A stretch of DNA of 64,000 bases from a virus, in the IMG/VR virus record IMGVR_UViG_3300043446_003110, one strand, 5' to 3'. The notes under the pieces were generated by a model. That model saw nothing but the letters and a program-made list of their open reading frames with translations. It ran no database searches and was not told the DNA's origin. Positions 6,463 to 61,609 of this stretch are shown piece by piece; position 1 is the first letter of the stretch, and the number at the start of each line of letters is the position of its first letter. Made by a program: the position numbers and the translations under genes.

Positions 6463-6727
6463 AGTATCTAATCCTATTGAGTTTTTAATTGAGTTTGCTT
6501 GGGCAAGCGGTGCTGATCAATTTACAGTCAACAATGCCAAAGATGAACTTAAAAAACTGCGATCTAATGCTGAATTGCCATTCTACAATGTTGCATGGGC
6601 CAGTATAAATGAACGTGGAGACATATATAATCTTACATTGCATTATAATCGTTTTGATGAAGAAAGATTAATTCCATTATATGCCAACAGAGAAGAACTA
6701 AAGAAGTGGCTTGACAAGAACCGATGA
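6455..6727 (+). CDS. hypothetical protein
   Basis: ORF in operon context. Confidence 0.6.
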   Translation: MDKVSNPIEFLIEFAWASGADQFTVNNAKDELKKLRSNAELPFYNVAWASINERGDIYNLTLHYNRFDEERLIPLYANREELKKWLDKNR

Positions 6728-7168
6728 CAGTGGTATACTCACTTCTATCAGTCCCGCGTGTAACTTTCTATGACAATTTGAACAAATTACTAGACATTTA
6801 TCAATTTCTTTCATAATTGTTTCTATAGAGTTTGCACCCTTAGACATTATAGAAATGTTGATTTCTTTTTCGTTTGGATCTAAATGATGAAAATCTAAAC
6901 AAACTGGAGTATTTTCTTGACAAAAATGACAGCCTTTTTCAGATTTATACTCAGATACAAATTGACGATTACGCTCACGATATAGTACATTATTTTTTCT
7001 AGCACGTTTGCGATAATCATCTTTATTTGAAAGATAATGTTTTTTAGAACATTCAGATTGACATTTTTTACATCTAGATTGCAATTTTCCTCTTTGTTTG
7101 TCCTTAAATCCAAATTCAGACACATTTTTTTCCTCTTGACAAGTGCCGCAAACTTTGGTATGATACAT
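6698..7168 (-). CDS. HNH endonuclease (free-standing, tRNA-adjacent)
   Basis: CGTC/CKKC Zn finger; CHFC..LDFHHLDP..KCLVICSNCHRKLH; SD GAGGAG on the minus strand overlaps the tRNA-Leu 5' end; ATG at 7168. Confidence 0.85.
   Translation of the reverse strand: MYHTKVCGTCQEEKNVSEFGFKDKQRGKLQSRCKKCQSECSKKHYLSNKDDYRKRARKNNVLYRERNRQFVSEYKSEKGCHFCQENTPVCLDFHHLDPNEKEINISIMSKGANSIETIMKEIDKCLVICSNCHRKLHAGLIEVSIPLSSVLVKPLL
6711..6739 (+). promoter_or_regulatory. sigma70-like promoter (upstream of HNH/tRNA-Leu)
   Basis: TTGACA-17-TATACT with ACCGAT in spacer. Confidence 0.75.
7136..7164 (+). promoter_or_regulatory. sigma70-like promoter embedded antisense in the HNH coding sequence, directly upstream of tRNA-Leu
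   Basis: TTGACA-17-TATGAT with TG extension. Confidence 0.65.
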
Positions 7169-7179
7169 AGATAACACTC

Positions 7180-7262
7180 CTCACGGTGGCGAAATTGGTA
7201 TACGCAAGACACTTAAAATGTCTCGACTATTAGTCATGTGGGTTCGACTCCCACCCGTGAGA
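7180..7262 (+). tRNA. tRNA-Leu(TAA)
   Basis: Acceptor CTCACGG/CCGTGAG, anticodon stem AGACA-CTTAAAA-TGTCT, long variable arm, T arm GTGGGTTCGACTCCCAC; no encoded CCA. Confidence 0.92.
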
Positions 7263-7326
7263 TTATACACCAAAACGTTTTAAGTAACAACAACAAAATT
7301 CAAAAATTACCTTTAAGGAGTAAATT

Positions 7327-8421
7327 ATGCTCAAGCTTGAACTTAGTTTTAATCCATTTGATGATAAAAGCACACAGAATGATGTTAACAGGAGCGGTTA
7401 TGTGAATATGAGAAACCGATTCTTGGATTCATTTGGCGGTGGTCATATACTTTGCTATAATAATAATCCACGTAAGAAACTCAGTGGTATGAATCATACT
7501 ACTATGATTAGCGAAGTTATAGACAATAACATCAAAAACAGTTCTGATGCTTATTTCTATATCAATGGATTACGCAAGAAGGATGATATAAAGTCTGTTC
7601 GTGCTTGCTACATTGATCTTGATGCTGGTCGAGACAACAATGGACATTATTTTTCTCCTAAGATTGTCAAGGAAAAGAAGAAGCAGTTCCTTAACATGAT
7701 CAACAGTTTTGCCGTCGAGCCAACATGGGTTGTCGATACACGAAATGGTTATCAAGTTTATTGGGTTCTTTGTGATAAGGATCATCAACTTGGACTTACG
7801 AAAAACAAAAAGTATTGGACAGGCATTCAGAAGAAGCTTGCCAATTATTTTAATGCTGATATTCGTGCCATGAAGATTAATCAAATCTTTCGCGTTCCTT
7901 ATACTTGGTGGCGTAAGCCTTGGGAGGGTAAGAAGTCATATTTTTCTACGCTTCTTGAAGGTTGCAGCGGTAAGAAGGTTAGTATTGTACAACTTCAAGA
8001 GGCTCTTACTGGTCAATCAGCACAGATTCATGTTCAGTCCGCAAAGAGCAGCGATGCTTGGTATGAGTCTTGGCGTGAAGCGTCTAAGAAAGCCGATGCC
8101 AATTCTGTGCCATTGACAGTTGACGCCGCTACCAGCATACTTAACAAACTGGTTAAGCAAGACGCTAACGCTGTATTGGTTCTTAACGAGGATGATGATA
8201 TTCCAGATTACAACGAGGCAGATATTGATGAAGATGAGGATACCAATCCAATATTCAGCAATAAGTGCATACCAAATGAAGCTCAACTTCGTTTGCTTTC
8301 AACTGTTGTGGATTTTCTCAATCAAGTTTCTACACCATTGTTTTTCAGTAATAATAAGTTTCTTTCTGCTTCGGCAAAAGATCTTGCTGCTAAACTCAGT
8401 GATGAATTTTGCGTTGGTTAA
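7327..8421 (+). CDS. RepB-like/AEP-superfamily primase domain protein
   Basis: ACYIDLD, PTWVVDTRNGYQVYW, QIFRVPYT motifs; acidic C-terminal linker. Confidence 0.7.
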   Translation: MLKLELSFNPFDDKSTQNDVNRSGYVNMRNRFLDSFGGGHILCYNNNPRKKLSGMNHTTMISEVIDNNIKNSSDAYFYINGLRKKDDIKSVRACYIDLDAGRDNNGHYFSPKIVKEKKKQFLNMINSFAVEPTWVVDTRNGYQVYWVLCDKDHQLGLTKNKKYWTGIQKKLANYFNADIRAMKINQIFRVPYTWWRKPWEGKKSYFSTLLEGCSGKKVSIVQLQEALTGQSAQIHVQSAKSSDAWYESWREASKKADANSVPLTVDAATSILNKLVKQDANAVLVLNEDDDIPDYNEADIDEDEDTNPIFSNKCIPNEAQLRLLSTVVDFLNQVSTPLFFSNNKFLSASAKDLAAKLSDEFCVG

Positions 8422-8440
8422 ACTACTTGGAGAATAACTG

Positions 8441-8704
8441 ATGAAAACTCTTAATGAAATGATTAATGAATTGACCGCTCTGCGTGATAAACTTGGTGGA
8501 AATGTTCAGGTATTCTTTGATAAGAATGGCTGCGACGATGCTGCAAGATCAATTACAGATGTTGAGGAAGTAGGATATTTTACAGATGACGATGGAGAGT
8601 TTTATTGGACTAGCGATTACGAACCAGAAAACTATCAAGTTCATAAACTGGTCAGAATTTACTCTGACAGAAGTTCTTTGTTTGATAATTTGGAGAATAA
8701 CTAA
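8441..8704 (+). CDS. cassette-like hypothetical protein ending LENN*
   Basis: Starts and ends in the junction repeat. Confidence 0.75.
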   Translation: MKTLNEMINELTALRDKLGGNVQVFFDKNGCDDAARSITDVEEVGYFTDDDGEFYWTSDYEPENYQVHKLVRIYSDRSSLFDNLENN

Positions 8705-9027
8705 TGGTTAAAATTCGTTTGGTTACTTTTTACGAAGTCCCAAATTGTTGGAACATAACCAATGATGAAGATGATAGGGATCTTGATGTTCAATTGGGCG
8801 AATATGTTTTTGACAATATTGATAACATTACCGCTCCCGGTTTTGAGATAGAAGATTTTGAGATTCCAGATAATCTGACTATGGATTCAAACAAGGAGTT
8901 TGTTGTGGATATTTGTCAGGGGCGATCTTTTAACGCTTGGAATGAGGCTGGAGTTGATTTTGGGTCAGAATATTACCAAAATTGGATCTTTTTCAAGAAC
9001 AAAGAAAACTCTTGGGAAGAATTTTGA
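8704..9027 (+). CDS. cassette-like acidic hypothetical protein
   Basis: Starts in the junction repeat. Confidence 0.75.
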   Translation: MVKIRLVTFYEVPNCWNITNDEDDRDLDVQLGEYVFDNIDNITAPGFEIEDFEIPDNLTMDSNKEFVVDICQGRSFNAWNEAGVDFGSEYYQNWIFFKNKENSWEEF

Positions 9028-9039
9028 GGAGAATAACTA

Positions 9040-9258
9040 ATGACTAATTACTGGATTGAAAAAACTGAAATTTTTGTGTATAACGACGATCAGCAAAATT
9101 TGAATGATCACAACTATAATCGTCTTATGAATCATTTATGTGGTCATGAATTTGGTAAGTTTTTGGCCCAAATAGGATTGACTAGACAAGATTCTATTAA
9201 ATTTCTGATTGACTCTTTAACATACGTTAATGATCAAAATAACGAATTTAATACCTAA
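9040..9258 (+). CDS. cassette-like hypothetical protein
   Basis: Flanked by junction repeats. Confidence 0.7.
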   Translation: MTNYWIEKTEIFVYNDDQQNLNDHNYNRLMNHLCGHEFGKFLAQIGLTRQDSIKFLIDSLTYVNDQNNEFNT

Positions 9259-9275
9259 TATTTGGAGAATAACTA

Positions 9276-9527
9276 ATGACAGATACAGAATTTCTAGAAT
9301 GGTTAATTGACCGACTAGTTGATGTTTATGGAGAAAATCCTAATGTAGATTTTATTCATAGATTGAGAAAAATTGCTACTAAATCAGAGAATAAAACAAT
9401 GAACATCTCGCTAGAAGAACTTAAAAATTTAATAATGAAGTATGATCTTATGGAGGGAGAATATCCTGAAAGTAGTTATGAGGGACTAAGCGTGTACGAG
9501 TTTATATGTCAAGAACTAGGTAATTAA
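9276..9527 (+). CDS. cassette-like hypothetical protein
   Basis: Starts in the junction repeat. Confidence 0.7.
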   Translation: MTDTEFLEWLIDRLVDVYGENPNVDFIHRLRKIATKSENKTMNISLEELKNLIMKYDLMEGEYPESSYEGLSVYEFICQELGN

Positions 9528-9602
9528 GTCTGATATTAATAATGACTTGTTCGATGCGAATTACTTTAATCTTCTAAAAAAAACTTTTCATAAGAATAAC
9601 TA

Positions 9603-9812
9603 ATGGGAATTTTTACAGAAAATGAAGAAGAGTTCAAAAAGAAGGCTAATATTGAACTCTATAATAAACTAAGAGCAAAAGGCTTAGAGCCTAATGAGAT
9701 TGCCAAGATTATTGGCACTGATGCCGCCAGAGAGGGTTATGATGCCCAAAATGGTTGGGATGGTCATTGGGCTGGATGGCGTTATATCAAAGGTGGTTTG
9801 GAGAATAACTAA
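9603..9812 (+). CDS. cassette-like hypothetical protein ending LENN*
   Basis: Flanked by junction repeats. Confidence 0.7.
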   Translation: MGIFTENEEEFKKKANIELYNKLRAKGLEPNEIAKIIGTDAAREGYDAQNGWDGHWAGWRYIKGGLENN

Positions 9813-9934
9813 TGAAACTAACTAAAGAGGATATTATAGTATACTCACTATTGATTTTGGGATTTTTGTTTTTTGTAGTAATTGGGCCAATAGGTTTGAG
9901 CAGTATGATATGTGAATATTTGGAGAAGAATTAA
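9812..9934 (+). CDS. 40-aa single-TM microprotein ending LEKN*; not in ORF track
   Basis: MKLTKEDIIVYSLLILGFLFFVVIGPIGLSSMICEYLEKN; flanked by repeats. Confidence 0.65.
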   Translation: MKLTKEDIIVYSLLILGFLFFVVIGPIGLSSMICEYLEKN

Positions 9935-10062
9935 TGTATTTTAATTTTGACCTAAAAGGACTAATACCAGCACTCTTAGTTATGACAGTATTTTCTATCA
10001 TGGGAATATGGAAAACGATAGAAGTTATTGTTTGGTTGATTAACCATATACGAATAGTCTAA
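9934..10062 (+). CDS. 42-aa membrane microprotein; not in ORF track
   Basis: MYFNFDLKGLIPALLVMTVFSIMGIWKTIEVIVWLINHIRIV; starts in a repeat variant. Confidence 0.6.
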   Translation: MYFNFDLKGLIPALLVMTVFSIMGIWKTIEVIVWLINHIRIV

Positions 10063-10132
10063 GTGGTGTGTATTATATCGTGGATACCAGGTTTCAGATA
10101 CTTTGCAGCAACAATCAAATAAGGAGAACAAA

Positions 10133-10438
10133 ATGAAATATTTTTTTGCTATAATCATGACAGTTTTGAGTTTTAACAGTACGGTAAATGCTGAAGGTTT
10201 GGTATTTAATTTTCCTCACTCGCCGTATGTTACTGTTACTGGAAATGGTAATGACGTTGCATTATTTGTGGAACGATATCAAGATATTCTTTGGCCGGAT
10301 TGGCGAGATGATGACAAATATGCTAGAGAAATGATAACTAATCTGAGAAATATTAGACGTACTGGCAAAGCGACTGTATATTATGGTGACGATAAGAGTC
10401 AACGAGCAGTTGAACTTGCTAGTCTGGTAATAAATTAA
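10133..10438 (+). CDS. secreted hypothetical protein
   Basis: Signal peptide MKYFFAIIMTVLSFNSTVNA; AAGGAG SD. Confidence 0.7.
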   Translation: MKYFFAIIMTVLSFNSTVNAEGLVFNFPHSPYVTVTGNGNDVALFVERYQDILWPDWRDDDKYAREMITNLRNIRRTGKATVYYGDDKSQRAVELASLVIN

Positions 10439-10471
10439 ATATTTTAAGGAATAAGAATAAGAATATAAATT

Positions 10472-10993
10472 ATGAGCATAAAATGTGTAGCATTTGATTG
10501 TTTTGGTACAGTATTTGATATGAAAGATATATCAAACAATGAAATATGTAAATATATTAATCATATAATTAAGCAAGATTATTCGCCTTACTCCTTTCCC
10601 AATAGTTGGTATAACTTAAAAAGTCACCCTGACAGTGCGGAAGGTATTAAACTGTTACAAGAACACGGTTATTTTTGTGTAGCACTAAGTAATGGGTCAT
10701 ATGATCTAATCAAAAGAGTATCAGAATCTAATAATATCTATTGGGATCATATTGTGGACTTGAACAAGCATAAAGTCTACAAGCCACATTTTGATGCTTA
10801 TAAAACTATAGAAAAAGATACAAACTTTAAACCATTAGAAACACTAATGGTAACTGCTAATCCTAAATTTGGAGATATTGAAGGAGCCAGAAATATTAAT
10901 ATGCGTAGTGCAATTATTAGACATGGCTATCTTAATACAATACCAGAGTTAGTTGGATATATTAAAAATCTTGAGGATTTGGAGAACAAATGA
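10472..10993 (+). CDS. HAD-superfamily hydrolase (haloacid dehalogenase type II-like)
   Basis: AFDCFGTVFD, ALSNG, YKPH, LMVTAN..GDIEGA. Confidence 0.85.
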   Translation: MSIKCVAFDCFGTVFDMKDISNNEICKYINHIIKQDYSPYSFPNSWYNLKSHPDSAEGIKLLQEHGYFCVALSNGSYDLIKRVSESNNIYWDHIVDLNKHKVYKPHFDAYKTIEKDTNFKPLETLMVTANPKFGDIEGARNINMRSAIIRHGYLNTIPELVGYIKNLEDLENK

Positions 10994-11196
10994 AAGATAA
11001 AGTTACAATGTATAATAATCCACAAGAATGGCTTAAAAAACCTCTTGTTATTAGATTAGAAGAACTAAGAAAAGCAAATTGTACTGGCCCTTGTGGTCAA
11101 TCTATGTTTACTATGAATAAAAGAAGTAGTGAAAATCAAACTCTTACTGAGGCCATAGAGTTAATTACTCACTATTTAAATGAGAAAATCGGCTAA
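10990..11196 (+). CDS. hypothetical protein
   Basis: Starts in a repeat variant. Confidence 0.65.
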   Translation: MKDKVTMYNNPQEWLKKPLVIRLEELRKANCTGPCGQSMFTMNKRSSENQTLTEAIELITHYLNEKIG

Positions 11197-11205
11197 AGTC
11201 TGCTA

Positions 11206-11234
11206 TTGACAACTGCCGATGTTAGATGTATACT
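11206..11234 (+). promoter_or_regulatory. sigma70-like promoter
   Basis: TTGACA-17-TATACT with GCCGAT in spacer. Confidence 0.8.
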
Positions 11235-11251
11235 TACTGAGTAAATGCGGT

Positions 11252-11336
11252 GGCGAATGTAGTTTAATTGGAAAAACAATTTTCACACAATCGAATAATG
11301 TGATCAGTATTGATGGTTCAACTCCATCCATTCGCC
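11252..11336 (+). ncRNA. tRNA-like element (His-like 8-bp acceptor) with aberrant anticodon arm
   Basis: GGCGAATG/CATTCGCC, D arm GTTT/AAAC, T arm GATGG-TTCAACT-CCATC; the central region is ~11 nt too long and has no canonical 7-nt anticodon loop. Confidence 0.7.
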
Positions 11337-11357
11337 CTTAAATTTGGAGAATAAATA

Positions 11358-11573
11358 ATGAGTTTCTGGACAGGTTTCTTTAGTTTATTCGATTGGATGG
11401 TTCCTAAAAGTCTAGATGAAAGTCTCTGTGATCTTGACAACAATATGCAAGAGTTGTATGATCGTATGGGGTGGGGAATTTATCATCATCCGTTTGAGCA
11501 AGAGGAAAGACAAAGACAAAACGCATTGTATGATAATCCCACAGAATCACAAAAGAGTTGGTTTAAGGAATAG
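11358..11573 (+). CDS. cassette-like hypothetical protein
   Basis: Starts in the junction repeat. Confidence 0.7.
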   Translation: MSFWTGFFSLFDWMVPKSLDESLCDLDNNMQELYDRMGWGIYHHPFEQEERQRQNALYDNPTESQKSWFKE

Positions 11574-11597
11574 TGTAAATTTTCAGATCAACTAACT

Positions 11598-11798
11598 ATG
11601 GATGAATACTATTATGCACAATCTGGCAGAGTTGACCAAGAAAGAAACTATTGGACTAAATTAAAACAACTAGCATCAGAAGATAATATTGTAGAATTTT
11701 ATAAGCTGTATGCAAAATACTTAGAATGGAATAATGTCCTATCCAACGATAGAAAAACAATTCATAAAATGGCTAAAAAAGTAGCGGAGAATAACTAA
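11598..11798 (+). CDS. cassette-like hypothetical protein ending AENN*
   Basis: Ends in the junction repeat. Confidence 0.7.
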   Translation: MDEYYYAQSGRVDQERNYWTKLKQLASEDNIVEFYKLYAKYLEWNNVLSNDRKTIHKMAKKVAENN

Positions 11799-12091
11799 TG
11801 AAATACAAAATTTTATTATTATTGGTTTTTTGTTTTATTGGATGCAATAGTCCAAATCCAAACCAAAAATTATACAAATATTCTGTTAAATTAACTAGAC
11901 CAGACGGAGTTGTTCACAAAACTTTTATTATAGAAAGTACGGAACAACCTATGGTTAATTCCACCAATGGAGGGCATTCAAAGTTTTTCGAAGCAGAAAA
12001 ATATAATGGAAAATGGACAGGACGATGGAACAGTCATTTGGCTCCTGTTGGTTGGCTTGTTGAAATTGAACCTTTAGTGGAGAATAACTAA
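11798..12091 (+). CDS. predicted lipoprotein, cassette-like, ending VENN*
   Basis: MKYKILLLLVFCFIG-C lipobox-like; flanked by repeats. Confidence 0.7.
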   Translation: MKYKILLLLVFCFIGCNSPNPNQKLYKYSVKLTRPDGVVHKTFIIESTEQPMVNSTNGGHSKFFEAEKYNGKWTGRWNSHLAPVGWLVEIEPLVENN

Positions 12092-12261
12092 TGAATGAAA
12101 CTTATCAAAGTTACAAAGGCGACACTTTTATCTTTCATCTATTTGATGAGAAGGATACTATTAGGATTGGTCTTGCTAGTAGTTTGGTTTATCCTTCAGT
12201 GAATAGGTATGAACTAAGGGAGTTAGCCGATTTTATCCTTCAATATTTGGAGAATAACTAA
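12091..12261 (+). CDS. 56-aa cassette-like protein ending LENN*; not in ORF track
   Basis: MNETYQSYKGDTF...FILQYLENN; flanked by repeats. Confidence 0.7.
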   Translation: MNETYQSYKGDTFIFHLFDEKDTIRIGLASSLVYPSVNRYELRELADFILQYLENN

Positions 12262-12286
12262 TCGGGAAATCCTCTAAAGTCTACAC

Positions 12287-12314
12287 TTGACAAATGACGA
12301 TAGTGTGTTATGAT
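12287..12314 (+). promoter_or_regulatory. sigma70-like promoter
   Basis: TTGACA-16-TATGAT with GACGAT in spacer. Confidence 0.7.
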
Positions 12315-12422
12315 GACCTAATACAAAATTGAAGGAAGCGTAGGTAATCATTCTTACTAAACTGTGGACTGGAGTTCCCCGCAGATAAATCATTCTACAA
12401 AGTAGAAAAAAGACTCCACCAA

Positions 12423-12496
12423 CTAGGTGTAGTTCAACTTGGCAGAACGCTTGCTTTGGGAGCAAGAGGCTGAGGGTTCAAATCCCTCCATCTAGA
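12423..12496 (+). tRNA. tRNA-Pro(TGG)
   Basis: Acceptor CTAGGTG/CATCTAG, anticodon arm CTTGC-TTTGGGA-GCAAG, T arm GAGGGTTCAAATCCCTC. Confidence 0.92.
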
Positions 12497-12519
12497 TTTA
12501 GATTTATAAGGAAATACCA

Positions 12520-12735
12520 ATGATACTAGACTCTAATAACAAAGATCATCATAAATATAGAATTTTTGATGCTAATGGAATAGAATTAAAATATTTGATT
12601 ATGGCAGATACCGAGTCAGGAGCCATCATTAGGTGCGTGTTAACTAGTGATGGAAAATTGCAAAAAGATCACAATAACGATATTATAGTAGAAACCACCA
12701 GTGTGCCAGCACCACTAAAATATTTAGCAGAATAA
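12520..12735 (+). CDS. hypothetical protein
   Basis: AAGGA SD. Confidence 0.65.
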   Translation: MILDSNNKDHHKYRIFDANGIELKYLIMADTESGAIIRCVLTSDGKLQKDHNNDIIVETTSVPAPLKYLAE

Positions 12736-12741
12736 TTTGTC

Positions 12742-12894
12742 ATGAATATGACCACAACACATAAACTAGTAATAGCATATTCTAGTGCCACTATATTTAT
12801 ATGTTCTATGTTAGTATGGGATGATCCTCTAATCGGTATGTTGTCTAGTGGATTTTTGTTAGGATTTTTATGTAATGAAATGTTTGGAGAATAA
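12742..12894 (+). CDS. ~50-aa membrane microprotein ending FGE* in the junction repeat; not in ORF track
   Basis: Hydrophobic ORF terminated by the first TAA of the repeat. Confidence 0.55.
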   Translation: MNMTTTHKLVIAYSSATIFICSMLVWDDPLIGMLSSGFLLGFLCNEMFGE

Positions 12895-12897
12895 CTA

Positions 12898-13224
12898 ATG
12901 AGTAATTTTGTAGATGAACAAGTTATTGAGCAACCGGCTTCGTTTGAGAAGGAGTTGTGCGACCTTATTAACAAACACAGTATGGAGAGGTTTAGTAACA
13001 CGCCCGATTGGGTGTTGGCTCGCCTTCTCGTAAGAACGCTGGACGCTTATGCGTCTGCTGTTCCGTGGATTAGCCCTTCCGTAAACGAGGTAGTTAAGGC
13101 TCAGTCTTATTATGACAAATATTGGGCGGCTGAAAATGAATTAACCGCTACTAGAGATGAATTGGATAGAATAAAAGAGATTGTTAAACAAAATAACCTA
13201 TCATTAGATTTGGAGAATAACTAA
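12898..13224 (+). CDS. cassette-like hypothetical protein ending LENN*
   Basis: Flanked by repeats; LINKHSMERFSNTPDWVLA motif; 5' part visibly more GC-rich. Confidence 0.75.
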   Translation: MSNFVDEQVIEQPASFEKELCDLINKHSMERFSNTPDWVLARLLVRTLDAYASAVPWISPSVNEVVKAQSYYDKYWAAENELTATRDELDRIKEIVKQNNLSLDLENN

Positions 13225-13433
13225 TGAGTTCTGACGAACTTATAAAAACCCTATATCAAATCAGCGATAGTTTTAAAGAAACTAGTTTGTGGCCTACTAT
13301 TAGGCTAATTGGTAGTCTTATTATTCTTGGTGTTTTTGTTATTTGTTATATTGTTCTTGATCTTTGGGAAGCATACATACTAAGGAAAATTCTTAAAAGG
13401 ATAACTAATGAATCCCCTACAACAAGCCACTAA
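13224..13433 (+). CDS. single-TM protein, paralog of 14034..14240
   Basis: MSSDELIKTLYQISDSF; starts in repeat. Confidence 0.75.
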   Translation: MSSDELIKTLYQISDSFKETSLWPTIRLIGSLIILGVFVICYIVLDLWEAYILRKILKRITNESPTTSH

Positions 13434-13605
13434 AACTTGGATAGAATCTGTTCAAAAGTTTTATGAAAATACTCCTAAGAATGAACTGACCCAAATTTAT
13501 ATGAGGGGCTATTGGGCTGGTTGGAGTGAGCGACAAATATTGGAATTGGCCGAAAATCTACTAAAGAATGAACAGGATTATCCTTTGTATAGGGAGAATG
13601 AATAA
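13408..13605 (+). CDS. cassette-like hypothetical protein ending RENE*
   Basis: Flanked by degenerate repeats. Confidence 0.65.
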   Translation: MNPLQQATKTWIESVQKFYENTPKNELTQIYMRGYWAGWSERQILELAENLLKNEQDYPLYRENE

Positions 13606-14033
13606 TGAAAGTTCATGTTGTGATTGATTATCCGGGTGTTGATCCAGATAGTGAAGAAGCAGATAATATTGTTGAGTGTTTGGAAATGGACTTGACCGAA
13701 TTTGGTGAAGATTATGGTCATATTTGGTATATTGATGATGCTACGGAGGACTAATGAAAAACTCTTTAACATTTAGTTTTGTTCATTTTAGTTTTTATTT
13801 CAGTGTGTTACTGGGAACAATAATGAACCTTATGGATAAAGATAAAGCACAATATAGTTTTCCTCCTAATATGGGATGGATTATTATATTAGGTTTTTTG
13901 TGTCTTATTTATAGGGATAATAACTAATGGAAAATCAACCAGTGAGCAATTTTAGATATTATCTATTGATATCGTGTTTAGTATCAATTATTATACTGTT
14001 AACTAATATAGTTCTAATTTTGGAGAATAAATA

Positions 14034-14240
14034 ATGAGTTCTAACGAACTTATAATCACACTATATCAGATTGGCGATAGTTTTAATAATGAGCCTATCT
14101 GGCCTTTTATTGAGCGTATGATCGGTTTAATTTTGCTAGGATGTTGTGTTGTAACTTACGTCTATCTGACAATTAGAGAATCTTATACAATAAGACTAAT
14201 AAACAAAATAAGGACAATAACTAATGGAAACCCTAATTAA
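14034..14240 (+). CDS. single-TM protein, paralog of 13224..13433
   Basis: MSSNELIITLYQIGDSF; starts in repeat. Confidence 0.75.
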   Translation: MSSNELIITLYQIGDSFNNEPIWPFIERMIGLILLGCCVVTYVYLTIRESYTIRLINKIRTITNGNPN

Positions 14241-14387
14241 CTATCTATTTGGTCGCATGGGCAAAAGAACTTGTCCAATCATCGCTATACATCATATATT
14301 TAATACTGGTTTTGATTCTCCTTGGCGAGAATGGTATGAGATCTCTTTTAAGGATGGAAGCAAAGTTGAACTTATTGAGAAACCAAA

Positions 14388-14669
14388 ATGATCAAAATTA
14401 AAAGACTACTAAGTTATGGTGGGGCTTGTCCATACCAACTAGAAGCAATAACAAGTGATGATAAGTGGCTTTATATTCGCTATCGTCATGGTGTGTTGAG
14501 TTATGTTGTGGCAAATAGTGAAAAAGAATGGATGGATAATGATTGTATAGACTATAATTATAGTGAAGCAATCGGAGATAGTTTGGATGGCTATGCGGAT
14601 CACGACTTGATTTTTCCTCATCTGTGTGATAAGATAGACTTTCCAGAAAATTTCAGATTGGAGTCTTAA
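14388..14669 (+). CDS. hypothetical phage protein
   Basis: ACPYQLE..LYIRYRHG motif. Confidence 0.7.
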   Translation: MIKIKRLLSYGGACPYQLEAITSDDKWLYIRYRHGVLSYVVANSEKEWMDNDCIDYNYSEAIGDSLDGYADHDLIFPHLCDKIDFPENFRLES

Positions 14670-14683
14670 AGGAGTTAGTAGAC

Positions 14684-14911
14684 ATGAATAAACCTAACGA
14701 AAAACAAAGAGCAATTATTAAATTTTTTCTGAAACAACTAAGTTTTTGGGAGAATACTAATGATATAAATTCACCAACTCACCTTACTGATATTGGTGAA
14801 GAATCTTATTATCTGAATGATCATTTATCACCAGAAACTATTAATGATGTAGAACACGTTACAGTACAAATGTATCAAGTAATAAGAAATACCGGGCCTT
14901 TTGGATTTTAA
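14684..14911 (+). CDS. hypothetical protein
   Basis: AAGGAG SD. Confidence 0.65.
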   Translation: MNKPNEKQRAIIKFFLKQLSFWENTNDINSPTHLTDIGEESYYLNDHLSPETINDVEHVTVQMYQVIRNTGPFGF

Positions 14912-14923
14912 CTCAAGCGACAG

Positions 14924-14951
14924 TTGACAACTACCGATAACATGGTAGAAT
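14924..14951 (+). promoter_or_regulatory. sigma70-like promoter
   Basis: TTGACA-16-TAGAAT with ACCGAT in spacer. Confidence 0.7.
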
Positions 14952-15169
14952 ACCACTATGGTACACGCTTACAAATACCCTTGGAATATAAGTATGAATT
15001 ACTATATTGAAAAGCATGATATGGAAATTATTCTGGATGCGTTGGAAACTTTGCACAACAGAATGAAAACTCGTCAAGATTTCGGTTTGCCAAATGACAA
15101 GACATTTTCTATCGAAGATGTTGATGGTCTTTTTCAGAGTTTTGACAACAGTTTTGCAGAGGATAGCAA

Positions 15170-15595
15170 ATGAAACAGAATATTATGAAACAATGGGTCA
15201 AGGCTCTTAGGAGCGGCAAATATAAGCAGGGTAAGGGAACTCTCAAGCAATATGATAGCAAGGGAAACGCACAGCATTGTTGTTTGGGCGTTCTTTGTGA
15301 ATTGTATAATCAGGAAATGAAAAAGAGTAAGAAAAAGACTCTGCCAGAAAAGATCTATAATAAGGATTTTCCTAATGGGTGTACAAAATTTGGAAACAAA
15401 TTAGATGATTTGCCTGTGGAGGTTAGGAAATGGGCAGGAATGAAAAATAGTATGGGTGAATTCTATACAGGAATAACTTGGTTTGGTGATTATGAGGTAG
15501 AAAAAATAAGAGAAAGTCTTGCTGATCTAAATGATACCGGACGAAAGTTTAAAACTATTGCTGGTATTATAGAGAAAAACTGGGAAGTTTTGTGA
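15170..15595 (+). CDS. conserved phage protein
   Basis: WVKALRSGKYKQG..CCLGVLCEL..LNDTG..F..IA pattern. Confidence 0.75.
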   Translation: MKQNIMKQWVKALRSGKYKQGKGTLKQYDSKGNAQHCCLGVLCELYNQEMKKSKKKTLPEKIYNKDFPNGCTKFGNKLDDLPVEVRKWAGMKNSMGEFYTGITWFGDYEVEKIRESLADLNDTGRKFKTIAGIIEKNWEVL

Positions 15596-15772
15596 TGATT
15601 AATCCAGTAATCTATACAGACGATGGTGGACTAACTTATCGTATAGAATTTGAGCGAACAAAAGATAACATACATTTTGAACATTACAAAACTGTGAAGT
15701 ATTTGTCTTTAGTTGATTTGATGAAGTTGCGAAATAATATAGATAAGATTACTATTAAATTTAGGAATCCAA

Positions 15773-16045
15773 ATGACAACAATAACTGAACAAGTTGCAT
15801 CTTATATTTATGATCCGTCTGTTCCTTATGGAACTTATAATGTATTTGCTTGTTATGAAAGTCTAGAGGATTATGATAATCGTAATGTAGATTATTATGA
15901 TCTTTATGATAAGAGCGGATTGTGTGTGAATAAGGGCGATCCTTTTTATGATTTACCAACATGGAAAGAGGTTTATGAACACTACTATCTTCCATCTATT
16001 AGCGAAGCAACCGAAGATCATCCTAGAGACTTGAAGTTTGTATGA
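15773..16045 (+). CDS. hypothetical protein
   Basis: AGGA SD, operon context. Confidence 0.65.
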   Translation: MTTITEQVASYIYDPSVPYGTYNVFACYESLEDYDNRNVDYYDLYDKSGLCVNKGDPFYDLPTWKEVYEHYYLPSISEATEDHPRDLKFV

Positions 16046-16387
16046 CTAAAGAAGAAAGATTCGCAGTAAGTTGGTGTTACAGTAGGGCTATGGATTATGT
16101 GGAAAAGTATAGTCCCACTAAAAATCCATATGAACATCACACTGGCCCACTTGATCTTATAGTAGATGGTGTTAACATTACTCAAACAATTAAGGAATTG
16201 CTAAATGACTCCTCATCCACTTGATGTTGTTGGAGCTTATATTGAAGATGCTAGTAAATATGGCTTGACCGCAGAAGTTGTACTGTATGCATTACAATAT
16301 ATGAAAGCTAATCCAGATAGCACCATAGAAGATGCTATGAACTACGGTTATTTTGAATGGGTTAAATGACAAAGATGAATTAAATTT

Positions 16388-16461
16388 GCCCCAATAGCTC
16401 AATTGCATAGAGCAAATCACTTCTAATGATTAGGTTACAGGTTGGAGTCCTGTTTGGGGTA
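16388..16461 (+). tRNA. tRNA-Arg(TCT) with C19/G56 swap
   Basis: Acceptor GCCCCAA/TTGGGGT, anticodon arm AATCA-CTTCTAA-TGATT, T loop TTGGAGT, D loop AATTGCATA. Confidence 0.88.
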
Positions 16462-16472
16462 CTTAAACAATA

Positions 16473-16523
16473 ATGTGTATATCTGGATAGAACATTAGAT
16501 TCTATCCAAGGAGATATATACAT
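16473..16523 (+). promoter_or_regulatory. RBS/start-sequestering hairpin containing a GTGTATA motif, upstream of HNH
   Basis: ATGTGTATATCT/AGATATATACAT and GGATAGAA/TTCTATCC pairings enclose AAGGAG and reach the ATG. Confidence 0.75.
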
Positions 16524-16902
16524 GAAATGTACTAAATGCGGTATTAATGATAGACCATATAAAGTAAAAACAGGAAGCAGGAAAGGAAAAATACAATCAT
16601 ATTGTAAAGAATGTAATAAAGAACAGGTTATAAAAAGACAAAGAAAACTAAAACAACAATGCGTTGAATATGCTGGCGGTGAATGCAAAATATGTGGATA
16701 TAAAGTATATTTGGGAGCATTAGAATTCCATCATTTAGATCCATCTAAGAAAGATATAGGATTTAGTAAATTTGGAAGAACCTCTTGGGATAAAAACAAA
16801 GAAAAAATAATAGAAGAATTAGATAAATGCGTATTACTTTGTGCAAATTGTCATAGAGAAGTACATGGCGGATTGCATAAAGAAATGTTGGTTGATCGTT
16901 AA
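16522..16902 (+). CDS. HNH endonuclease (tRNA-adjacent), same family as 6698..7168
   Basis: CTKC/CKEC; CKICG..LEFHHLDP..KCVLLCANCHREVH. Confidence 0.88.
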   Translation: MKCTKCGINDRPYKVKTGSRKGKIQSYCKECNKEQVIKRQRKLKQQCVEYAGGECKICGYKVYLGALEFHHLDPSKKDIGFSKFGRTSWDKNKEKIIEELDKCVLLCANCHREVHGGLHKEMLVDR

Positions 16903-16932
16903 GTTAGTAACTTTTATTTGAAAGGAATGTTT

Positions 16933-17157
16933 ATGAAGAATTTTATTTTTACTGTTGCCGCACTACTAGTTGGTGGAGTTGCTTTTGCTGGTGATTGCCA
17001 GAATGGAGTCTGCCGCCAGCCAGTTCGTAATGCTGCACGTTCGGTTGTTCGCGTCACAGAGGCTGTTGTAACAGCCCCAGTTCGCGTTACGAAGCGTGTT
17101 GTACAGAATACCAAGCAGCGTCGAGCCGCTCGTTATTCTTGCAATACTTGTAACTGA
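16933..17157 (+). CDS. small secreted basic peptide
   Basis: Signal peptide ..GGVAFA-GDCQNGVCR, Arg/Val-rich. Confidence 0.7.
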   Translation: MKNFIFTVAALLVGGVAFAGDCQNGVCRQPVRNAARSVVRVTEAVVTAPVRVTKRVVQNTKQRRAARYSCNTCN

Positions 17158-17208
17158 TTTATGTCTAACAGTTTAGCGGGTTCTGTTATAAAACAAAAAC
17201 TCGCCCAA

Positions 17209-17295
17209 GGAATCTTGGCAGAGAGGTCTAATGCAGCGGTTTACTAAACCGCCGAGGGTTAAAATCCTCCGGGGGTTCGAATCCCTCAGATTCCG
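17209..17295 (+). tRNA. tRNA-Ser with ACT anticodon
   Basis: Acceptor GGAATCT/AGATTCC, G discriminator, anticodon arm GCGGT-TTACTAA-ACCGC, long variable arm, T arm GGGGGTTCGAATCCCTC. Confidence 0.88.
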
Positions 17296-17302
17296 TTTAA
17301 AT

Positions 17303-17500
17303 ATGAATAAATTAGCTACCATAGTATTGAATAACGATATAATAGAGATTCTACATAACGAGAATCTTAAGCATAATCCATATCTTATTAGACTAACTAA
17401 TTACAACAATGAAAGATATGAAATAAGAGCTAGTAAGGAAGATTTAGAAGAGTTATCAGTCATCATTGACGATATAATAGTTGAGGAACCAACAAAATGA
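17303..17500 (+). CDS. hypothetical protein (start reassigned downstream of tRNA-Ser)
   Basis: In-frame ATG at 17303. Confidence 0.6.
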   Translation: MNKLATIVLNNDIIEILHNENLKHNPYLIRLTNYNNERYEIRASKEDLEELSVIIDDIIVEEPTK

Positions 17501-21615: not shown

Positions 21616-21957
21616 ATGAAAAATTCCCTAACCAGCGTTCTTTTATTTTCATTACTAATATCTATAGCTTCGGTTTTTGCTATGGATAATAACAAAGAAA
21701 AAACTCTTATTATTTTTTCTGCCGATTGGTGTAAATACTGCCAAGTTGCCAAGCAAGATATGGCAAATCATCCCAAATTATCAGAGGCAATAAAAAATTA
21801 TACCATCGTAGATGTAGATTTTGATGTTGACAAAGAGATAGTTAGAGGGTACAATATAAAAAGCATCCCATGCTTTGTAGTTTTTGAGAACGGAAAAGAA
21901 AAATCAAGATTACAAGGATACAAGGGTCCAAACAGTTTATTATTACTTCTGAAATAG
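21616..21957 (+). CDS. thioredoxin-like protein with signal peptide
   Basis: FSADWCKYC and SIPCF cis-Pro motif; hydrophobic N-terminus. Confidence 0.85.
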   Translation: MKNSLTSVLLFSLLISIASVFAMDNNKEKTLIIFSADWCKYCQVAKQDMANHPKLSEAIKNYTIVDVDFDVDKEIVRGYNIKSIPCFVVFENGKEKSRLQGYKGPNSLLLLLK

Positions 21958-22312
21958 GGGGCGTAAAGGTTTCGACTACATAAAGAAGATTATATTAGCA
22001 AGTAGTGGTTGATCGACAGGCCACTTTAAAAGTCGATTAAAACGCTTTAACTGGCGAAACTCAGTTAGCACTTGCTGCCTGACAAAAAAGGGCAGTAACA
22101 GACTGCGATTGCGAATGAGGGTAGCGATCAAAAGTCTGTCGTTAAATCCCTCTGCACTTACAATACCCAGCGGGTTGTAGGTTAAGAGAAGCTGGTAAGA
22201 CAGAAAGAATCTTGTTTGTTCTATACTTCTGTTTAACTTATGAACAAAATAAACTTGTAGAAGATATAGTTTGATATATGTTAGGACAGGGGTTCGACTC
22301 CCCTCGCCTCCA
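21957..22312 (+). ncRNA. ssrA: tmRNA; predicted tag (A)GETQLALAA* at 22053..22082
   Basis: 5' GGGGGCGTAAAGGTTTCGAC; 3' GGTTCGACTCCCCTCGCCTCCA; G3:U70 Ala identity pair; tag ORF ends ALAA. Confidence 0.93.
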
Positions 22313-49318: not shown

Positions 49319-49817
49319 ACCAGAGTTATTTAGCCAAAACTACCAAAAAGAATGGTCAGAAACTCATAAATATAAACATATTCATACTGGCGAATATTGT
49401 ACATTTGAAGCTTATGTAGCTGAATATATCGTTTTGAGGAGATCTGAAAAATTGAATTTAGGTAAGCCATCTTACAAATTTTGGACAAAGGGCGATCCTC
49501 TACACTGGATATGGAAGAAGCAACATGGAGCAGCACTTCAATTAAAAAAGAAGTATAGCGAAGAAGCCATTATACAAGCTATACAGTCTAAAGATTTTGA
49601 TAAATTATTAGTTATTGGAGTGCAAAATGGCAGAGGATATAAAATAAATCCAGAGGCAGAAAAAATCATAGCAAAGTATCACCAAAAGATTGAAGATCAG
49701 AAACACAAAATTGAAATCAATATGGATGTATCAATTGAAAAACCGGCACTTGAAACTAGAGCGTCAGCAGGCTATAATAACAAAAAGAACACCATGAACC
49801 AGTTGAGGAACCTATGA
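49302..49817 (+). CDS. hypothetical protein
   Basis: Operon context. Confidence 0.7.
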   Translation: MPQKNKPELFSQNYQKEWSETHKYKHIHTGEYCTFEAYVAEYIVLRRSEKLNLGKPSYKFWTKGDPLHWIWKKQHGAALQLKKKYSEEAIIQAIQSKDFDKLLVIGVQNGRGYKINPEAEKIIAKYHQKIEDQKHKIEINMDVSIEKPALETRASAGYNNKKNTMNQLRNL

Positions 49818-50920
49818 GCAAAGTTAAAAAGAACAATGTAAAATTCTCTGAAGACGCTATAAGCAATTCTATTGTCAGTAAATATGGAGATGTTGTCAGA
49901 AGCGGAACAGAAGTTCTTGAAAGTATAAATAGTCTAAATGTTATAGGTCTTTCTCCAGCATTAGATATAGCACTTGGCGGTGGAATAAGAGAAGGTTCTG
50001 TCGTGGTGATGACGGGAGATCCAAAAAGTGGCAAAACTACAACAGCTTTACATTTTGCATCTAAATGCCAACAAAAGGGAAAACGCATTATATATGTGAA
50101 TACTGAGGGTAGACTATCAAAACAAAATTTTGATGGAATTAAGGGGCTTCAGCCAGACAATATCTTAATAATAGAGTCAACTGACGAAAGAGTATTATCA
50201 GCAGAAGATTTTCTTAACATTATTGAGTATTATATCAATAATGATCCCGGATGTTTAATCATTGCTGATTCACTATCTAACATGGTTCCAGCGTGTGAAC
50301 TTGAAGGCGAAGTAAGAACTGGCGTAAGAAATGCACTTCCAAGATTGCTATCAATGTTTTTCAAGCGAATCAGTGGTACTTTGATGAAAAATAAGACAAT
50401 TCTTATTTGTATCACTCATAATATTGCTAATACTGGTGGATCGCCATATGCCCCACAAAAGATGGCAGATTGTGGAAATATGTTGCAATATCAGGCCGGT
50501 ACTAATATGGTCATTACTCATCGTGGTAAGTGGCAAGTTCCAAAGGATACTGGTCCACACGTTGGCCAAATAGCAAATTGGGTGATAAAAACTTCTAACG
50601 CTGGCGGTAGACCAAACAGCACGGCAGAAAGTTGGATAAAATATGGAACTGGAGTTGATGAAGTACAAGAAATTGTACAAATTGCTTGCGAATTTAGACT
50701 TATCAAAGCGGCTGGAGCGTGGTATACCATACAATGCGCCGTTGATGATCAAGCTAATCCAATTATAGTAAAATTACTAGAAGACAACGGTATTGGGAAC
50801 ACTTCAGACGAAGTTGAAAGATTTTTTAAATTTCAAGGTGTGAATAATGTATCGGAATTTTTGAATAACAATCCATCGATGTCAGAATTTATATATGACA
50901 AGATAAAGGAACTACATTGA
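49814..50920 (+). CDS. recA: RecA/UvsX-like recombinase
   Basis: SPALDIALGGG, GDPKSGKTT, IIADSL, KAAGAWY. Confidence 0.88.
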   Translation: MSKVKKNNVKFSEDAISNSIVSKYGDVVRSGTEVLESINSLNVIGLSPALDIALGGGIREGSVVVMTGDPKSGKTTTALHFASKCQQKGKRIIYVNTEGRLSKQNFDGIKGLQPDNILIIESTDERVLSAEDFLNIIEYYINNDPGCLIIADSLSNMVPACELEGEVRTGVRNALPRLLSMFFKRISGTLMKNKTILICITHNIANTGGSPYAPQKMADCGNMLQYQAGTNMVITHRGKWQVPKDTGPHVGQIANWVIKTSNAGGRPNSTAESWIKYGTGVDEVQEIVQIACEFRLIKAAGAWYTIQCAVDDQANPIIVKLLEDNGIGNTSDEVERFFKFQGVNNVSEFLNNNPSMSEFIYDKIKELH

Positions 50921-59310: not shown

Positions 59311-60942
59311 ATGAATTGGTTCCCATTGAAGAATTTTACACATTACAGTCTTCTTCGTGGATATTCTAAACCAGAAGAACTGGCACAAAAGTGCAAAGAT
59401 AATGGATATCCAGCCTGTGGAATATGCGATTACAAAACATTATCTGGTGCAGTAGCTTTTTATAAAGCTTGTAAAAAGGTAGGCATAAAACCAATAATTG
59501 GATGTTCATTTGATTTTGCCATTCTATTTGCTAAAAATAAGCAAGGTTGGTATGAATTGATAGAAATGGTTTCTTCATTAGATGAAAATGGAAAATTACC
59601 AGAACGTTATGACAATATAGACATTAGCAAAAATCTCGTTAGTGTTTATAAAGGTTCAACTGATGATATGCCTATTAGCTATTATACCAATCGTGAAGAT
59701 GCAAAACTTCACAGAGTTCTATTGTGTTCAGATATGAAAACCACATTACCCAAAATATTTAAGTCTGTTAGACCAGACAATAAGGGTGGAATAAATATAG
59801 ATGCTAAGTTTCCTAGCGAACATGCTGATAAGTTAACATATTTTATGCAAGATAATTTCTATATAAAAGACAAGAACGAATCCAGCAATTTAGATACGTC
59901 AAAGTTAAAAGATATTTATGATCAGTGTAAAGACTATGATATATTAAGTAAACCAATATTACCAAAATTCTCTTGCCCAAATGGGTTAACAGAAGAAGAA
60001 TATCTTAAAGAATTATGCCGTAAGGGGTGGAAAGAATTGCTCATAGACGGCAATAAAGTGTCCAATGAAGATTCCAAGCAAAAGTATCTTGATAGATTTA
60101 AAGAAGAATTCGACGTAATCAAAGACGCCAATTTATTCGGTTATTTTTTGATTGTTCAAGATATCATCAAGTATGTAAATGATCGCGGTTGGCTCTCCGG
60201 TCCCGGAAGAGGATCTGCGGCAGGGTGCTTAATATCTTACTTGATAGGAATTACTAAGATAGATCCAATTGAATTTGACCTTCTATTTGCACGTTTTTAC
60301 AATGCCGGTAGAAATACCGCTGATCATATATCTTTGCCAGATATTGATATGGATGTCCCCGGTACAAAACGAGATGAGATAATATCTTATCTAAAAGATA
60401 AATATGGGAATGAAAGAGTTAGTCAAATGTTGACATTTGGAAGACTTCAAGGTAAAAGTGCAATAAAAGAGGTATTACGCATAAATGAAGCGTGTTCTTT
60501 TGCAGAAATGAATGCTATCAGCAATTGTATACCAGATGAAGCTAGAATTTCAGATCAATTGGCAGAAATGGATGACGAAGATAGATCTATCATCAGATGG
60601 GCATTAATGAATAATGCTGATGAACTAAGAGATTTTTGTAGACTCAATGACGATGGATCATTAGAAGGAGAATACGCTGAGTACTTCGATCAAGCGATAA
60701 AAATAGAAGGAACCTTCAAAACGCAAGGTAAACATGCTGCTGGAGTTGTAATCTCAGCTGACCCTCTTCAAAAAGTATGCCCAATGGTTAAACAAAAAGG
60801 ATCTAATGAAAAAATAGCCGGTCTGGAAATGTCAGATCTGGAAGCATTGGGTCATGTAAAATTTGATGTATTGGGCATAAATTTGCTTGATAAAATAATG
60901 AAAATTGAACAATTAACTGGAGATAATAATGGCAAATCGTGA
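59311..60942 (+). CDS. dnaE: DNA polymerase III alpha, N-terminal half (PHP + palm)
   Basis: THYSLL, GPGRGSAAG, PDIDMD, GKHAAG, ends VKFDVLG. Confidence 0.92.
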   Translation: MNWFPLKNFTHYSLLRGYSKPEELAQKCKDNGYPACGICDYKTLSGAVAFYKACKKVGIKPIIGCSFDFAILFAKNKQGWYELIEMVSSLDENGKLPERYDNIDISKNLVSVYKGSTDDMPISYYTNREDAKLHRVLLCSDMKTTLPKIFKSVRPDNKGGINIDAKFPSEHADKLTYFMQDNFYIKDKNESSNLDTSKLKDIYDQCKDYDILSKPILPKFSCPNGLTEEEYLKELCRKGWKELLIDGNKVSNEDSKQKYLDRFKEEFDVIKDANLFGYFLIVQDIIKYVNDRGWLSGPGRGSAAGCLISYLIGITKIDPIEFDLLFARFYNAGRNTADHISLPDIDMDVPGTKRDEIISYLKDKYGNERVSQMLTFGRLQGKSAIKEVLRINEACSFAEMNAISNCIPDEARISDQLAEMDDEDRSIIRWALMNNADELRDFCRLNDDGSLEGEYAEYFDQAIKIEGTFKTQGKHAAGVVISADPLQKVCPMVKQKGSNEKIAGLEMSDLEALGHVKFDVLGINLLDKIMKIEQLTGDNNGKS

Positions 60943-61609
60943 TTATATTATTTTTGATTTTGAAACTGGATCACGCAACCCACATAGAACACAACCAACA
61001 CAAATAGCCGCAATTGCTTTAGATGGTCGCACATTGCATATGAAAGGTCAATTTAATAGTGAAATCAAACCAATATTTGATGATGAAAAAGCTATAGCAG
61101 CTGGACTTGATCCGATAGAAAATGAAGCATTAAAGATAACTAAAAAGACTAGAGAGCAACTAGAAGAAGCACCATCTTTAAAATCAGTATGGTCTAAATT
61201 CACAAAGTTTGTGGATCAATATAACTGGAAGGGCGATGCATTTTACAATCCAATACCAGTTGGATTTAATATTATTGGATTTGATATGATAATCATAAAT
61301 AGACTTTGTAAAGAATTTGGACCTTGGGACAAGGAAAGAGAGCAGCAAAAACTTTTTAGTAAGGTTTACAAAATAGATATAATGGATAGTATATTTGCTT
61401 GGACAGAAAGTGATCCTAGTGTTAGATCAATAAGCATGGATTCATTGAGACAGCGAATGGGTCTAGATATGGAAAATGCTCATGATGCTCTACAAGATGT
61501 AAAAGATGAAGCTAATATTTTTATTAAAATCATGAAAACCCACCGTGCTGTTTACCAAAATATGAATTTTGACAAAGCCTTTGCTAATGGTGAATTATAT
61601 GTCAAATAA
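60929..61609 (+). CDS. DEDDh 3'-5' exonuclease (DnaQ/epsilon-like)
   Basis: FDFETG, GFNIIGFD, AHDALQD. Confidence 0.88.
   Translation: MANRDYIIFDFETGSRNPHRTQPTQIAAIALDGRTLHMKGQFNSEIKPIFDDEKAIAAGLDPIENEALKITKKTREQLEEAPSLKSVWSKFTKFVDQYNWKGDAFYNPIPVGFNIIGFDMIIINRLCKEFGPWDKEREQQKLFSKVYKIDIMDSIFAWTESDPSVRSISMDSLRQRMGLDMENAHDALQDVKDEANIFIKIMKTHRAVYQNMNFDKAFANGELYVK

Follow-up and report, generated by a model that had tools for sequence, protein, structure and literature searches.

A 17-nt stop/start junction recurring through an array of small-gene cassettes in an uncultured phage

The fast turnover of small host-takeover and anti-defence genes in large lytic phages is an open question, to which the promoter-early stem-loop (PeSL) elements of T4-type phages give an answer at the level of the transcription unit (Arbiol et al. 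2010, PMC2839356; Comeau et al. 2014, PMC4122927). A PeSL is intergenic and consists of an AT-rich tract, a sigma-70 early promoter and a terminator stem-loop, and each cassette is its own transcription unit; some mapped crossovers lie between the Shine-Dalgarno (SD)/ATG and the −10 box, and general recombination at short homology has been proposed as the agent. Here we describe a 17-nt junction motif, TTGGAGAATAACTAATG, that joins the small open reading frames (ORFs) of a cassette array in an uncultured phage, on one strand of a 64,000-nt stretch of DNA (the window, whose positions are used throughout) that is part of the 161,058-bp IMG/VR virus record IMGVR_UViG_3300043446_003110, in which a 127-bp terminal repeat indicates a circular assembly. 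From sequence comparison we consider it probable that the motif is both a translational coupler and a microhomology crossover site for the exchange of whole cassettes, and our best reading of the junction is as a candidate translational counterpart of the PeSL, the closest published system, so that this locus would give a second answer to the same question, at the level of the cistron.

The likeness lies in a short repeated expression signal that borders small ORFan genes, as in the hyperplastic regions of large lytic phages, and, as found here, in indel and replacement ends between close relatives that fall in the repeat, and in an SD and a start codon at its 3′ end. By contrast, the junction measures 17–18 nt, contains neither a promoter nor a stem-loop, and lies within operons, where it overlaps the 3′ end of the coding sequence before it, so that the insulation would be translational; a common C-terminal tail is imposed as well. 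In addition, this phage is not T4-type by its polymerase.

Short shared gene-border sequences have also been proposed as preferred exchange points between unrelated modules in work on modular phage evolution and its boundary 'linker' sequences (Susskind and Botstein 1978), at lambdoid boundaries and at the T4 internal-protein locus (Repoila et al. 1994, cited in PMC4122927). Those sequences are longer or looser and have few copies per genome, whereas here a near-exact 17-mer occurs 13–16 times in 5.8 kb and the mobility of single-gene cassettes is documented. Literature searches, directed at the motif string as well as at exchange sites of the SD/stop/start linker type, yielded only the PeSL and RegB papers.

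The first-pass annotation, made from the letters of the window alone, had called the array integron-like without attC palindromes. Like an integron, it lines up unrelated small genes, mostly without promoters of their own, in the same orientation behind upstream promoters, and its single-gene units occur in many orders and are shared between genomes. That it lacks attC-like repeats was borne out, but 'integron-like' is just an analogy. No integrase had been seen in the window, and the whole genome contains none either: the tyrosine recombinase family PF00589 had no match there, whereas 14 of 14 control genomes matched, and the genome-wide search for serine recombinases was likewise empty with positive controls. 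The integron reading was rejected, given that there is no integrase (neither IntI nor another tyrosine or serine recombinase) or resolvase, that the junctions have no attC imperfect palindromes, and that the repeat is a 17-nt direct repeat forming part of the coding and translation signals. The bicistronic-design translational couplers reportedly engineered in synthetic biology share with the junction an SD in the end of the upstream cistron, a TAATG overlap and the role of a standard connector for predictable downstream expression; they are engineered parts, whereas the junction is a natural repeat that probably acts in recombination too, and it may serve as a natural precedent for them.

Copies of the junction and their reading frames

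With up to three mismatches allowed, the 17-mer had 16 matches in the window, against a chance mean of 0.72 and a maximum of 4 in 100 shuffles. All 16 were on the + strand within 8427–14226, and five were exact (8690, 9262, 9798, 12884 and 13210), confirming the recurrence that had been reported from inspection. The positions first given agreed with ours to within 2 nt (11786, 12078, 13914 and 14212 correspond to 11784, 12077, 13913 and 14210 in Table 1), and weaker but genuine copies, of degenerate sequence, stand at 9593, 10979, 13399 and 13593, whereas the supposed copy at 10122 was rejected as an ordinary SD only. The match at 8748, inside a gene, probably arose by chance.

Across the whole 161,058-bp genome, every copy with at most two mismatches (13 of 13) fell in the 5.8-kb array, as did all 11 occurrences of the 11-mer AATAACTAATG, which runs from the spacer to the ATG, while the remaining 22 GGAG-N8-ATG sites each had a different spacer. 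The motif is therefore not the general or preferred ribosome-binding site of this genome. This confinement to the array rather than an even spread, which the genome-wide count revealed, recurred in four related genomes (three complete and one 84% complete), each of which carries one to five copies in a single stretch of up to ~3 kb; the array of the window's genome is by far the largest among them. The exact 17-mer occurs in at least 117 IMG/VR stretches, in which multi-copy loci come almost entirely from one network of related phage contigs, 57–251 kb long. A megablast comparison of the array with 50,697 phage records gave no match. The motif could offer a simple handle for finding the mobile accessory genes of these phages in metagenomes.

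Alignment on the start codons showed a conserved block with sharp edges, from about −15 to +3 of the ATG, and no similarity in the flanks beyond. GGAG occupies −12 to −9, that is, 8 nt ahead of the ATG that forms the last three bases of the motif, and the SD, the stops in two frames and the overlapping ATG are arranged as first annotated. In frame a, the motif gives LENN*-type tails (Leu-Glu-Asn-Asn-stop) with a TAATG stop/start overlap at 11 junctions; in frame b a single junction has a GE* tail, its stop lying 3 nt ahead of the ATG. The third frame contains no stop, and in two cases the preceding ORF continues across the motif into the following gene. Four junctions have an upstream ORF that stops ahead of the motif, and at one (11344) the motif follows a tRNA, with no ORF terminated there. 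Given its 8-nt spacing, the junction has the layout of coupled cistrons (an SD in the upstream ORF, a spacing of 5–9 nt and a stop overlapping or adjoining the start), and we infer that translation would be coupled at the motif. Because the motif is kept in three frame contexts, after a tRNA (11344) and without a following gene (12247), it is the nucleotide string that is conserved, not the peptide and not merely a working start site.

The proposal that the junction imposes the -ENN tail was checked against homologs elsewhere and holds for the HAD hydrolase, the one cassette with many homologs. Only two of its 120 best homologs end in E[NK][NK], and the tail sequence appears only in the four closest (78–91% identity), as LENN, LENK, LVNN, or LEN read through, whereas more distant homologs carry unrelated tails after the conserved core. 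On this alignment evidence the C-terminal tail is shown to be imposed on the HAD protein. A recombination signal would in this way write itself into proteins, as the shared -ENN tails, which matters for annotation and for the reading of 'conserved' C-termini.

Breakpoints and mobile cassettes in related phages

When related genomes were aligned for breaks in gene content and order, gain, loss, replacement and reordering were found to break in the motif, including a strain-level 280-bp indel. Three close relatives (L126, L127 and L128) remain collinear with the window as far as 8444, a stretch that includes the first motif copy, and diverge beyond it; between the same two flanking genes, L126 has one cassette, L127 about seven and the window about 27 ORFs. 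Adjacent BLAST blocks between the window and its relatives overlap by the motif.

The finest resolution came from L126 and L127, which share 99.9% identity along the 2656 nt leading to the motif, two of the three mismatches being within the junction. L127 then has a 280-bp insertion, comprising a 12-codon mini-ORF and an 80-codon ORF, with direct motif copies on both sides and a 22-nt alignment overlap. The cassette c49 shows 100% identity between the two genomes along 242 nt that start with the first base of the 5′ motif and reach the ATG of the 3′ motif; at the latter motif identity falls to 83%, and L127 is 756 bases longer. Motif position 12 carries a variant base, by which the L126 junction is seen to combine the left flank of one L127 copy with the right part of another, which places the crossover within the first 11 bases of the motif. 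The breakpoints of the relatives thus support the role of connector and crossover site that the first-pass annotation had assigned to the motif, though it is not the sole site.

Two motif copies 38 nt apart enclose the 12-codon mini-ORF (L127 2636–2690, also L128 11101–11155). In its first codons it is similar to the beginning of the paralogous membrane-protein cassettes of the window (13224 and 14034), and it probably represents what exchange has left of a truncated cassette.

Three cassettes could be followed individually. Alleles of c49 that are ~80% identical occur in four other loci, with different neighbours in three (L126 and L131 share one context), and the allele of L126 and L127 recurs between other neighbours in L145 at 97.6–98.3% identity. 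The nucleotide identity of c14 in relatives is 93–95%, against mostly 67–76% (84% in one block) for the collinear backbone. The third, c3, was found in at least 12 contigs with at least six different neighbours on the left and on the right, homology stopping at the junction, and is ~85% identical at the nucleotide level in a 223-kb phage (G003) whose polymerase and UvsX-like protein are 51% and 33% identical in amino acids, respectively. As judged by these shared blocks, c49, c3 and c14 are shown to be single-gene, motif-to-motif units that move between positions, strains and lineages.

Relatives also carry further junction subtypes, whose spacer is A-rich or ends in GAAGAATG (L133 at 7053; L144 at 5743, 6525 and 6719; L130 at 356; and others). 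These are likewise found at recent breakpoints, and there may be several linker 'dialects' within the phage network.

Proposed mechanism and its alternatives

In the mechanism we propose, the junction would supply a GGAG SD 8 nt before the next ATG, stops in two frames and a TAATG overlap inside three promoter-driven operons, and the same string at the start and end of each cassette would provide a patch of microhomology. General recombination, by UvsX-type strand exchange or replication template switching and possibly in co-infections, could then delete, duplicate, insert or replace whole cassettes, each product again being properly terminated and translationally coupled. A 17-nt adaptor of this kind would let genes of 35–170 codons move between positions, strains and distant phages, each bringing its own stop, ribosome-binding site and start. 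Given that a UvsX-like gene is present and a site-specific recombinase is absent, general recombination is the simpler agent; we infer both the acting enzyme and intermediates such as the mini-circles that flanking repeats form in PeSLs. Double-strand breaks made by HNH endonucleases could stimulate local exchange. The GGAGAAUAA half of the motif may have an added RNA-level role, as an S1-binding or nuclease-target box like those of T4 early mRNAs, and an RNA-level reason is likely for part of the motif's conservation. Together with this explanation, we think it likely that the array is a hyperplastic early-gene region of a lytic-type phage.

To what degree exchange prefers the motif was measured in counts that are not phylogenetically independent: neighbours were conserved in 20% of genome pairs across motif junctions versus 35% across others (odds ratio 0.48), and among 98 distinct internal ends of high-scoring segment pairs at 97% identity or more, 14 lay at the canonical motif, where 0.6% were expected by position, and 36 at SD-junction variants of the motif family, where 2.7% were expected. 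A recent breakpoint was carried by 9 of 42 motif gene starts and by 33 of 514 others (odds ratio 4.0, P=0.002), and 50 of 74 breakpoints were at gene starts overall. Exchange concentrates at cistron starts generally, with the canonical motif as the hottest class, and the motif raises the shuffling rate about 2–4 fold.

The dependence among these counts weighs against a crossover role for the motif, as do several further points. The homology at the motif is only 11–17 nt, and T4 reportedly needs roughly 50 bp for efficient recombination, so the events must be rare or assisted; exchange at the motif would be rare per infection and visible over evolutionary time. A comparable rare-event argument has been made for PeSLs (PMC2839356). 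Non-motif gene starts of the region are also shuffled often, and the junctions of the same cassettes in relatives include many degenerate variants, so the canonical string is neither necessary nor the sole site. Selection against gene-breaking recombinants could by itself concentrate the surviving breakpoints at gene boundaries. On the side of coupling, predicted accessibility did not differ between motif starts and other starts (0.46 vs 0.51, P=0.23), leaving a special translational advantage of the motif unsupported.

We rank second, and regard as unlikely, a purely regulatory explanation, in which the motif is kept only for an RNA-level function, as a standard or co-regulated initiation region (an S1 box or a RegB-like or RegA-like target), recombination is a by-product and the shuffling is generic. 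From the SD on, the first nine bases of the motif, GGAGAAUAA, are identical to the T4 RegB/S1 target consensus GGAGAAUAAAA (general form GGAGRAYARAA), a box with GGAG and an A-rich stretch in the SD regions of early-gene ribosome-binding sites (Durand et al. 2006, PMC1702504), and the variant copies at 11344 and 14020 match this consensus at 10 of 11 bases. The motif is, moreover, placed only at cistron starts of promoter-driven early-type operons, and the non-motif junctions of the region are shuffled as well. The T4 sites, by contrast, are degenerate and dispersed over the genome, and the box itself neither includes a fixed stop/start part nor is reported to act in recombination. The sites of a global regulator should be dispersed over the early genes, as GGAGAATAA is in T4, whereas here and in four relatives they occupy one short locus, with dozens of neighbouring small genes lacking the motif. 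RegA of RB69 is said to select UAA triplets, of which the motif holds two. Both proteins were nevertheless rejected as readers of the motif, since they are absent from the genome while the T4 positive controls worked: RegB (PF10715) had no match even at E≤10 in a search that finds T4 regB at 1e-69, and RegA (PF01818) had no match against a T4 control of 2e-75. Nor does initiation account for copy 12247, which has no gene to start, or for copy 11344, which has no ORF to stop, and start-site accessibility is not special. Above all, a function in RNA alone leaves the motif-to-motif identity blocks and the direct-repeat-flanked indels unexplained.

More doubtful is the idea that the 17-mer is the recognition site of an integrase-free capture system, for example one of HNH cutting and repair, pooled among divergent co-infecting phages and serving at the same time as a site of RNA processing or translation control; if true, capture at the 17-mer would make a true 'phage integron' at the cistron level. 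Slighter still is the chance of an active, sequence-specific cassette system, in which a dedicated protein, either one of the HNH paralogs or an unknown factor, would recognise or cut the motif and drive cassette capture and excision. A specific site would fit the precise junctions and the sharing of an exact 17-mer by divergent phages, and two HNH paralogs (35% identical, E 2e-18) bracket the array near tRNAs; tRNA-adjoining HNH genes, however, are common selfish elements. Tyrosine and serine recombinases are missing from the genome, the motif shows neither dyad symmetry nor nearby palindromes, and many functional junctions are degenerate, whereas the mapped crossover lies simply in the longest identical stretch, as homology-guided exchange predicts. 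Origin by tandem duplication of one ancestral cassette, whose coding parts diverged while the junction alone stayed conserved, is very improbable and was rejected: the array holds one paralog pair (13224 and 14034) and the relatives a multi-copy family (c0), but the cassettes, of 35–173 aa, are diverse and include a HAD hydrolase with many outside homologs besides lipoprotein, secreted, membrane and acidic proteins, all-against-all BLASTP of the cassettes found no further relation, and identical cassettes between different neighbours are not a product of duplication and divergence.

Operons, flanking genes and the phage

Small ORFs with diverse products had been noted at the outset, and 23 were counted in the array (Table 1). 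The HAD hydrolase was the only Pfam family among them, and PHROGs assigned three families of unknown function; by eye, the other products include a lipoprotein, a secreted protein, several membrane microproteins and acidic proteins. The paralogous genes at 13224 and 14034 share 88% nucleotide similarity over 68 nt, beginning one base 5′ of the motif.

Table 1 Features of the cassette array, its junction copies and its surroundings, in window positions
Feature	Position	Strand	Remarks
Cassette array	8427..14240	+	three polycistronic units of motif-joined small ORFs, 23 in all (35-173 aa), on one strand
Motif copy, 1 mismatch	8427..8443	+	array left edge; homology with close relatives L126/L127/L128 reaches 8444
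Motif, exact	8690..8706	+	upstream ORF tail LENN*
Shortened junction variant	10979..10992	+	end of HAD hydrolase gene, tail LENK*, ATGA overlap
Motif copy, 1 mismatch	11344..11360	+	directly 3′ of tRNA; terminates no ORF, 5′ TTGGAG retained
Motif copy, 2 mismatches	11784..11800	+	tail AENN*
Motif copy, 1 mismatch	12077..12093	+	tail VENN*
Motif copy, ATC for ATG	12247..12263	+	no gene after; promoter and tRNA-Pro instead
Motif, exact, second frame	12884..12900	+	upstream ORF tail FGE*
Motif, exact	13210..13226	+	starts one of two paralogous membrane-protein cassettes (other at 14020)
Motif copy, 3 mismatches	13913..13929	+	tail RDNN*
Motif copy, 1 mismatch	14020..14036	+	tail LENK*
Motif copy, 3 mismatches	14210..14226	+	upstream ORF reads through, open third frame
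Decayed junction, 11/17	15156..15172	+	ahead of conserved right-flank gene; same gene in L126 preceded by exact motif
Mobile cassette c49, 72 aa	9026..9278	+	motif at both ends (9026, 9262)
Mobile cassette c14, 40-aa membrane microprotein	9798..9936	+	bounded by motif copies 9798, 9920
Mobile cassette c3, 65 aa	13394..13607	+	bounded by degenerate motif copies (13394, 13591)
Sigma-70-like promoter, 11/12	7136..7164	+	would drive tRNA-Leu, 364-aa gene and first cassette operon
Sigma-70-like promoter, 11/12	11206..11234	+	ahead of tRNA 11253-11337 and second cassette operon
Sigma-70-like promoter, 11/12	12287..12314	+	ahead of tRNA-Pro (12423-12496) and third cassette operon
HNH endonuclease gene	6698-7177	-	1.2 kb before array, adjoins tRNA genes
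Left-flank gene, conserved, 364 aa	7327..8421	+	function unknown; 96-97% aa identity in L126-L129
Right-flank gene, conserved, 141 aa	15170..15595	+	function unknown
HNH endonuclease gene	16522-16902	+	2.3 kb after array, adjoins tRNA genes; passes Pfam HNH cut-off
UvsX/RecA-like recombinase	49814..50920	+	putative; candidate enzyme for homology-guided exchange

The operon layout includes only four + strand 11/12 promoters over 7136–14951, the fourth at 14924, and these strong sigma-70-like sites divide the region; a tRNA follows each of those at 7136, 11206 and 12287, and the motif links the cistrons within the operons. A promoter scan found no promoter within the junction motif. No stem-loops or local inverted repeats were found at the junctions, terminator-like sites were no more frequent than in shuffled sequence, and Rfam over 6500–17500 returned tRNAs only. 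A promoter module is itself repeated (11179–11220, 12260–12301 and 14924–14938), with a lead-in AAGTCT followed by TTGACA-17-TATxxT; it precedes the tRNA at 11253 and tRNA-Pro, lies directly 3′ of the junction copy at 12247, and looks like the phage's own PeSL-like early promoter unit.

For the left-flank protein, a metagenome scan added only two more distant loci, in which a promoter, not an array, follows the gene. In 65%-identical relatives (L130 2749–2820, L153 5180–5250 and L154 5622–5690) a consensus promoter lies directly 3′ of the 364-aa gene, with no array. L153 has a three-copy motif cluster upstream of this gene, which indicates that the position of the array is itself variable.

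The phage encodes rIIA, a UvsX-like recombinase, a DnaB-type helicase, UvdE and a class Ia ribonucleotide reductase. Its replicative polymerase (59311–63170) is of the DnaE/PolIII-alpha type and is split in two ORFs (543 and 533 aa), with a gene for an RNase T-like 3′-5′ exonuclease between them (60929–61609). The label 'T4-like phage' was dropped, as this split polymerase reaches only ~30% identity with cultured phages and PHROGs gave no match for most of the structural genes. In relatives, one TAA was reported within the match to the first part of the polymerase. Beyond the array, ARAGORN reported a phage-encoded tmRNA (tag GETQLALAA; window 21957–22312) and a tRNA-Ser with the unusual anticodon ACT (17209–17295).

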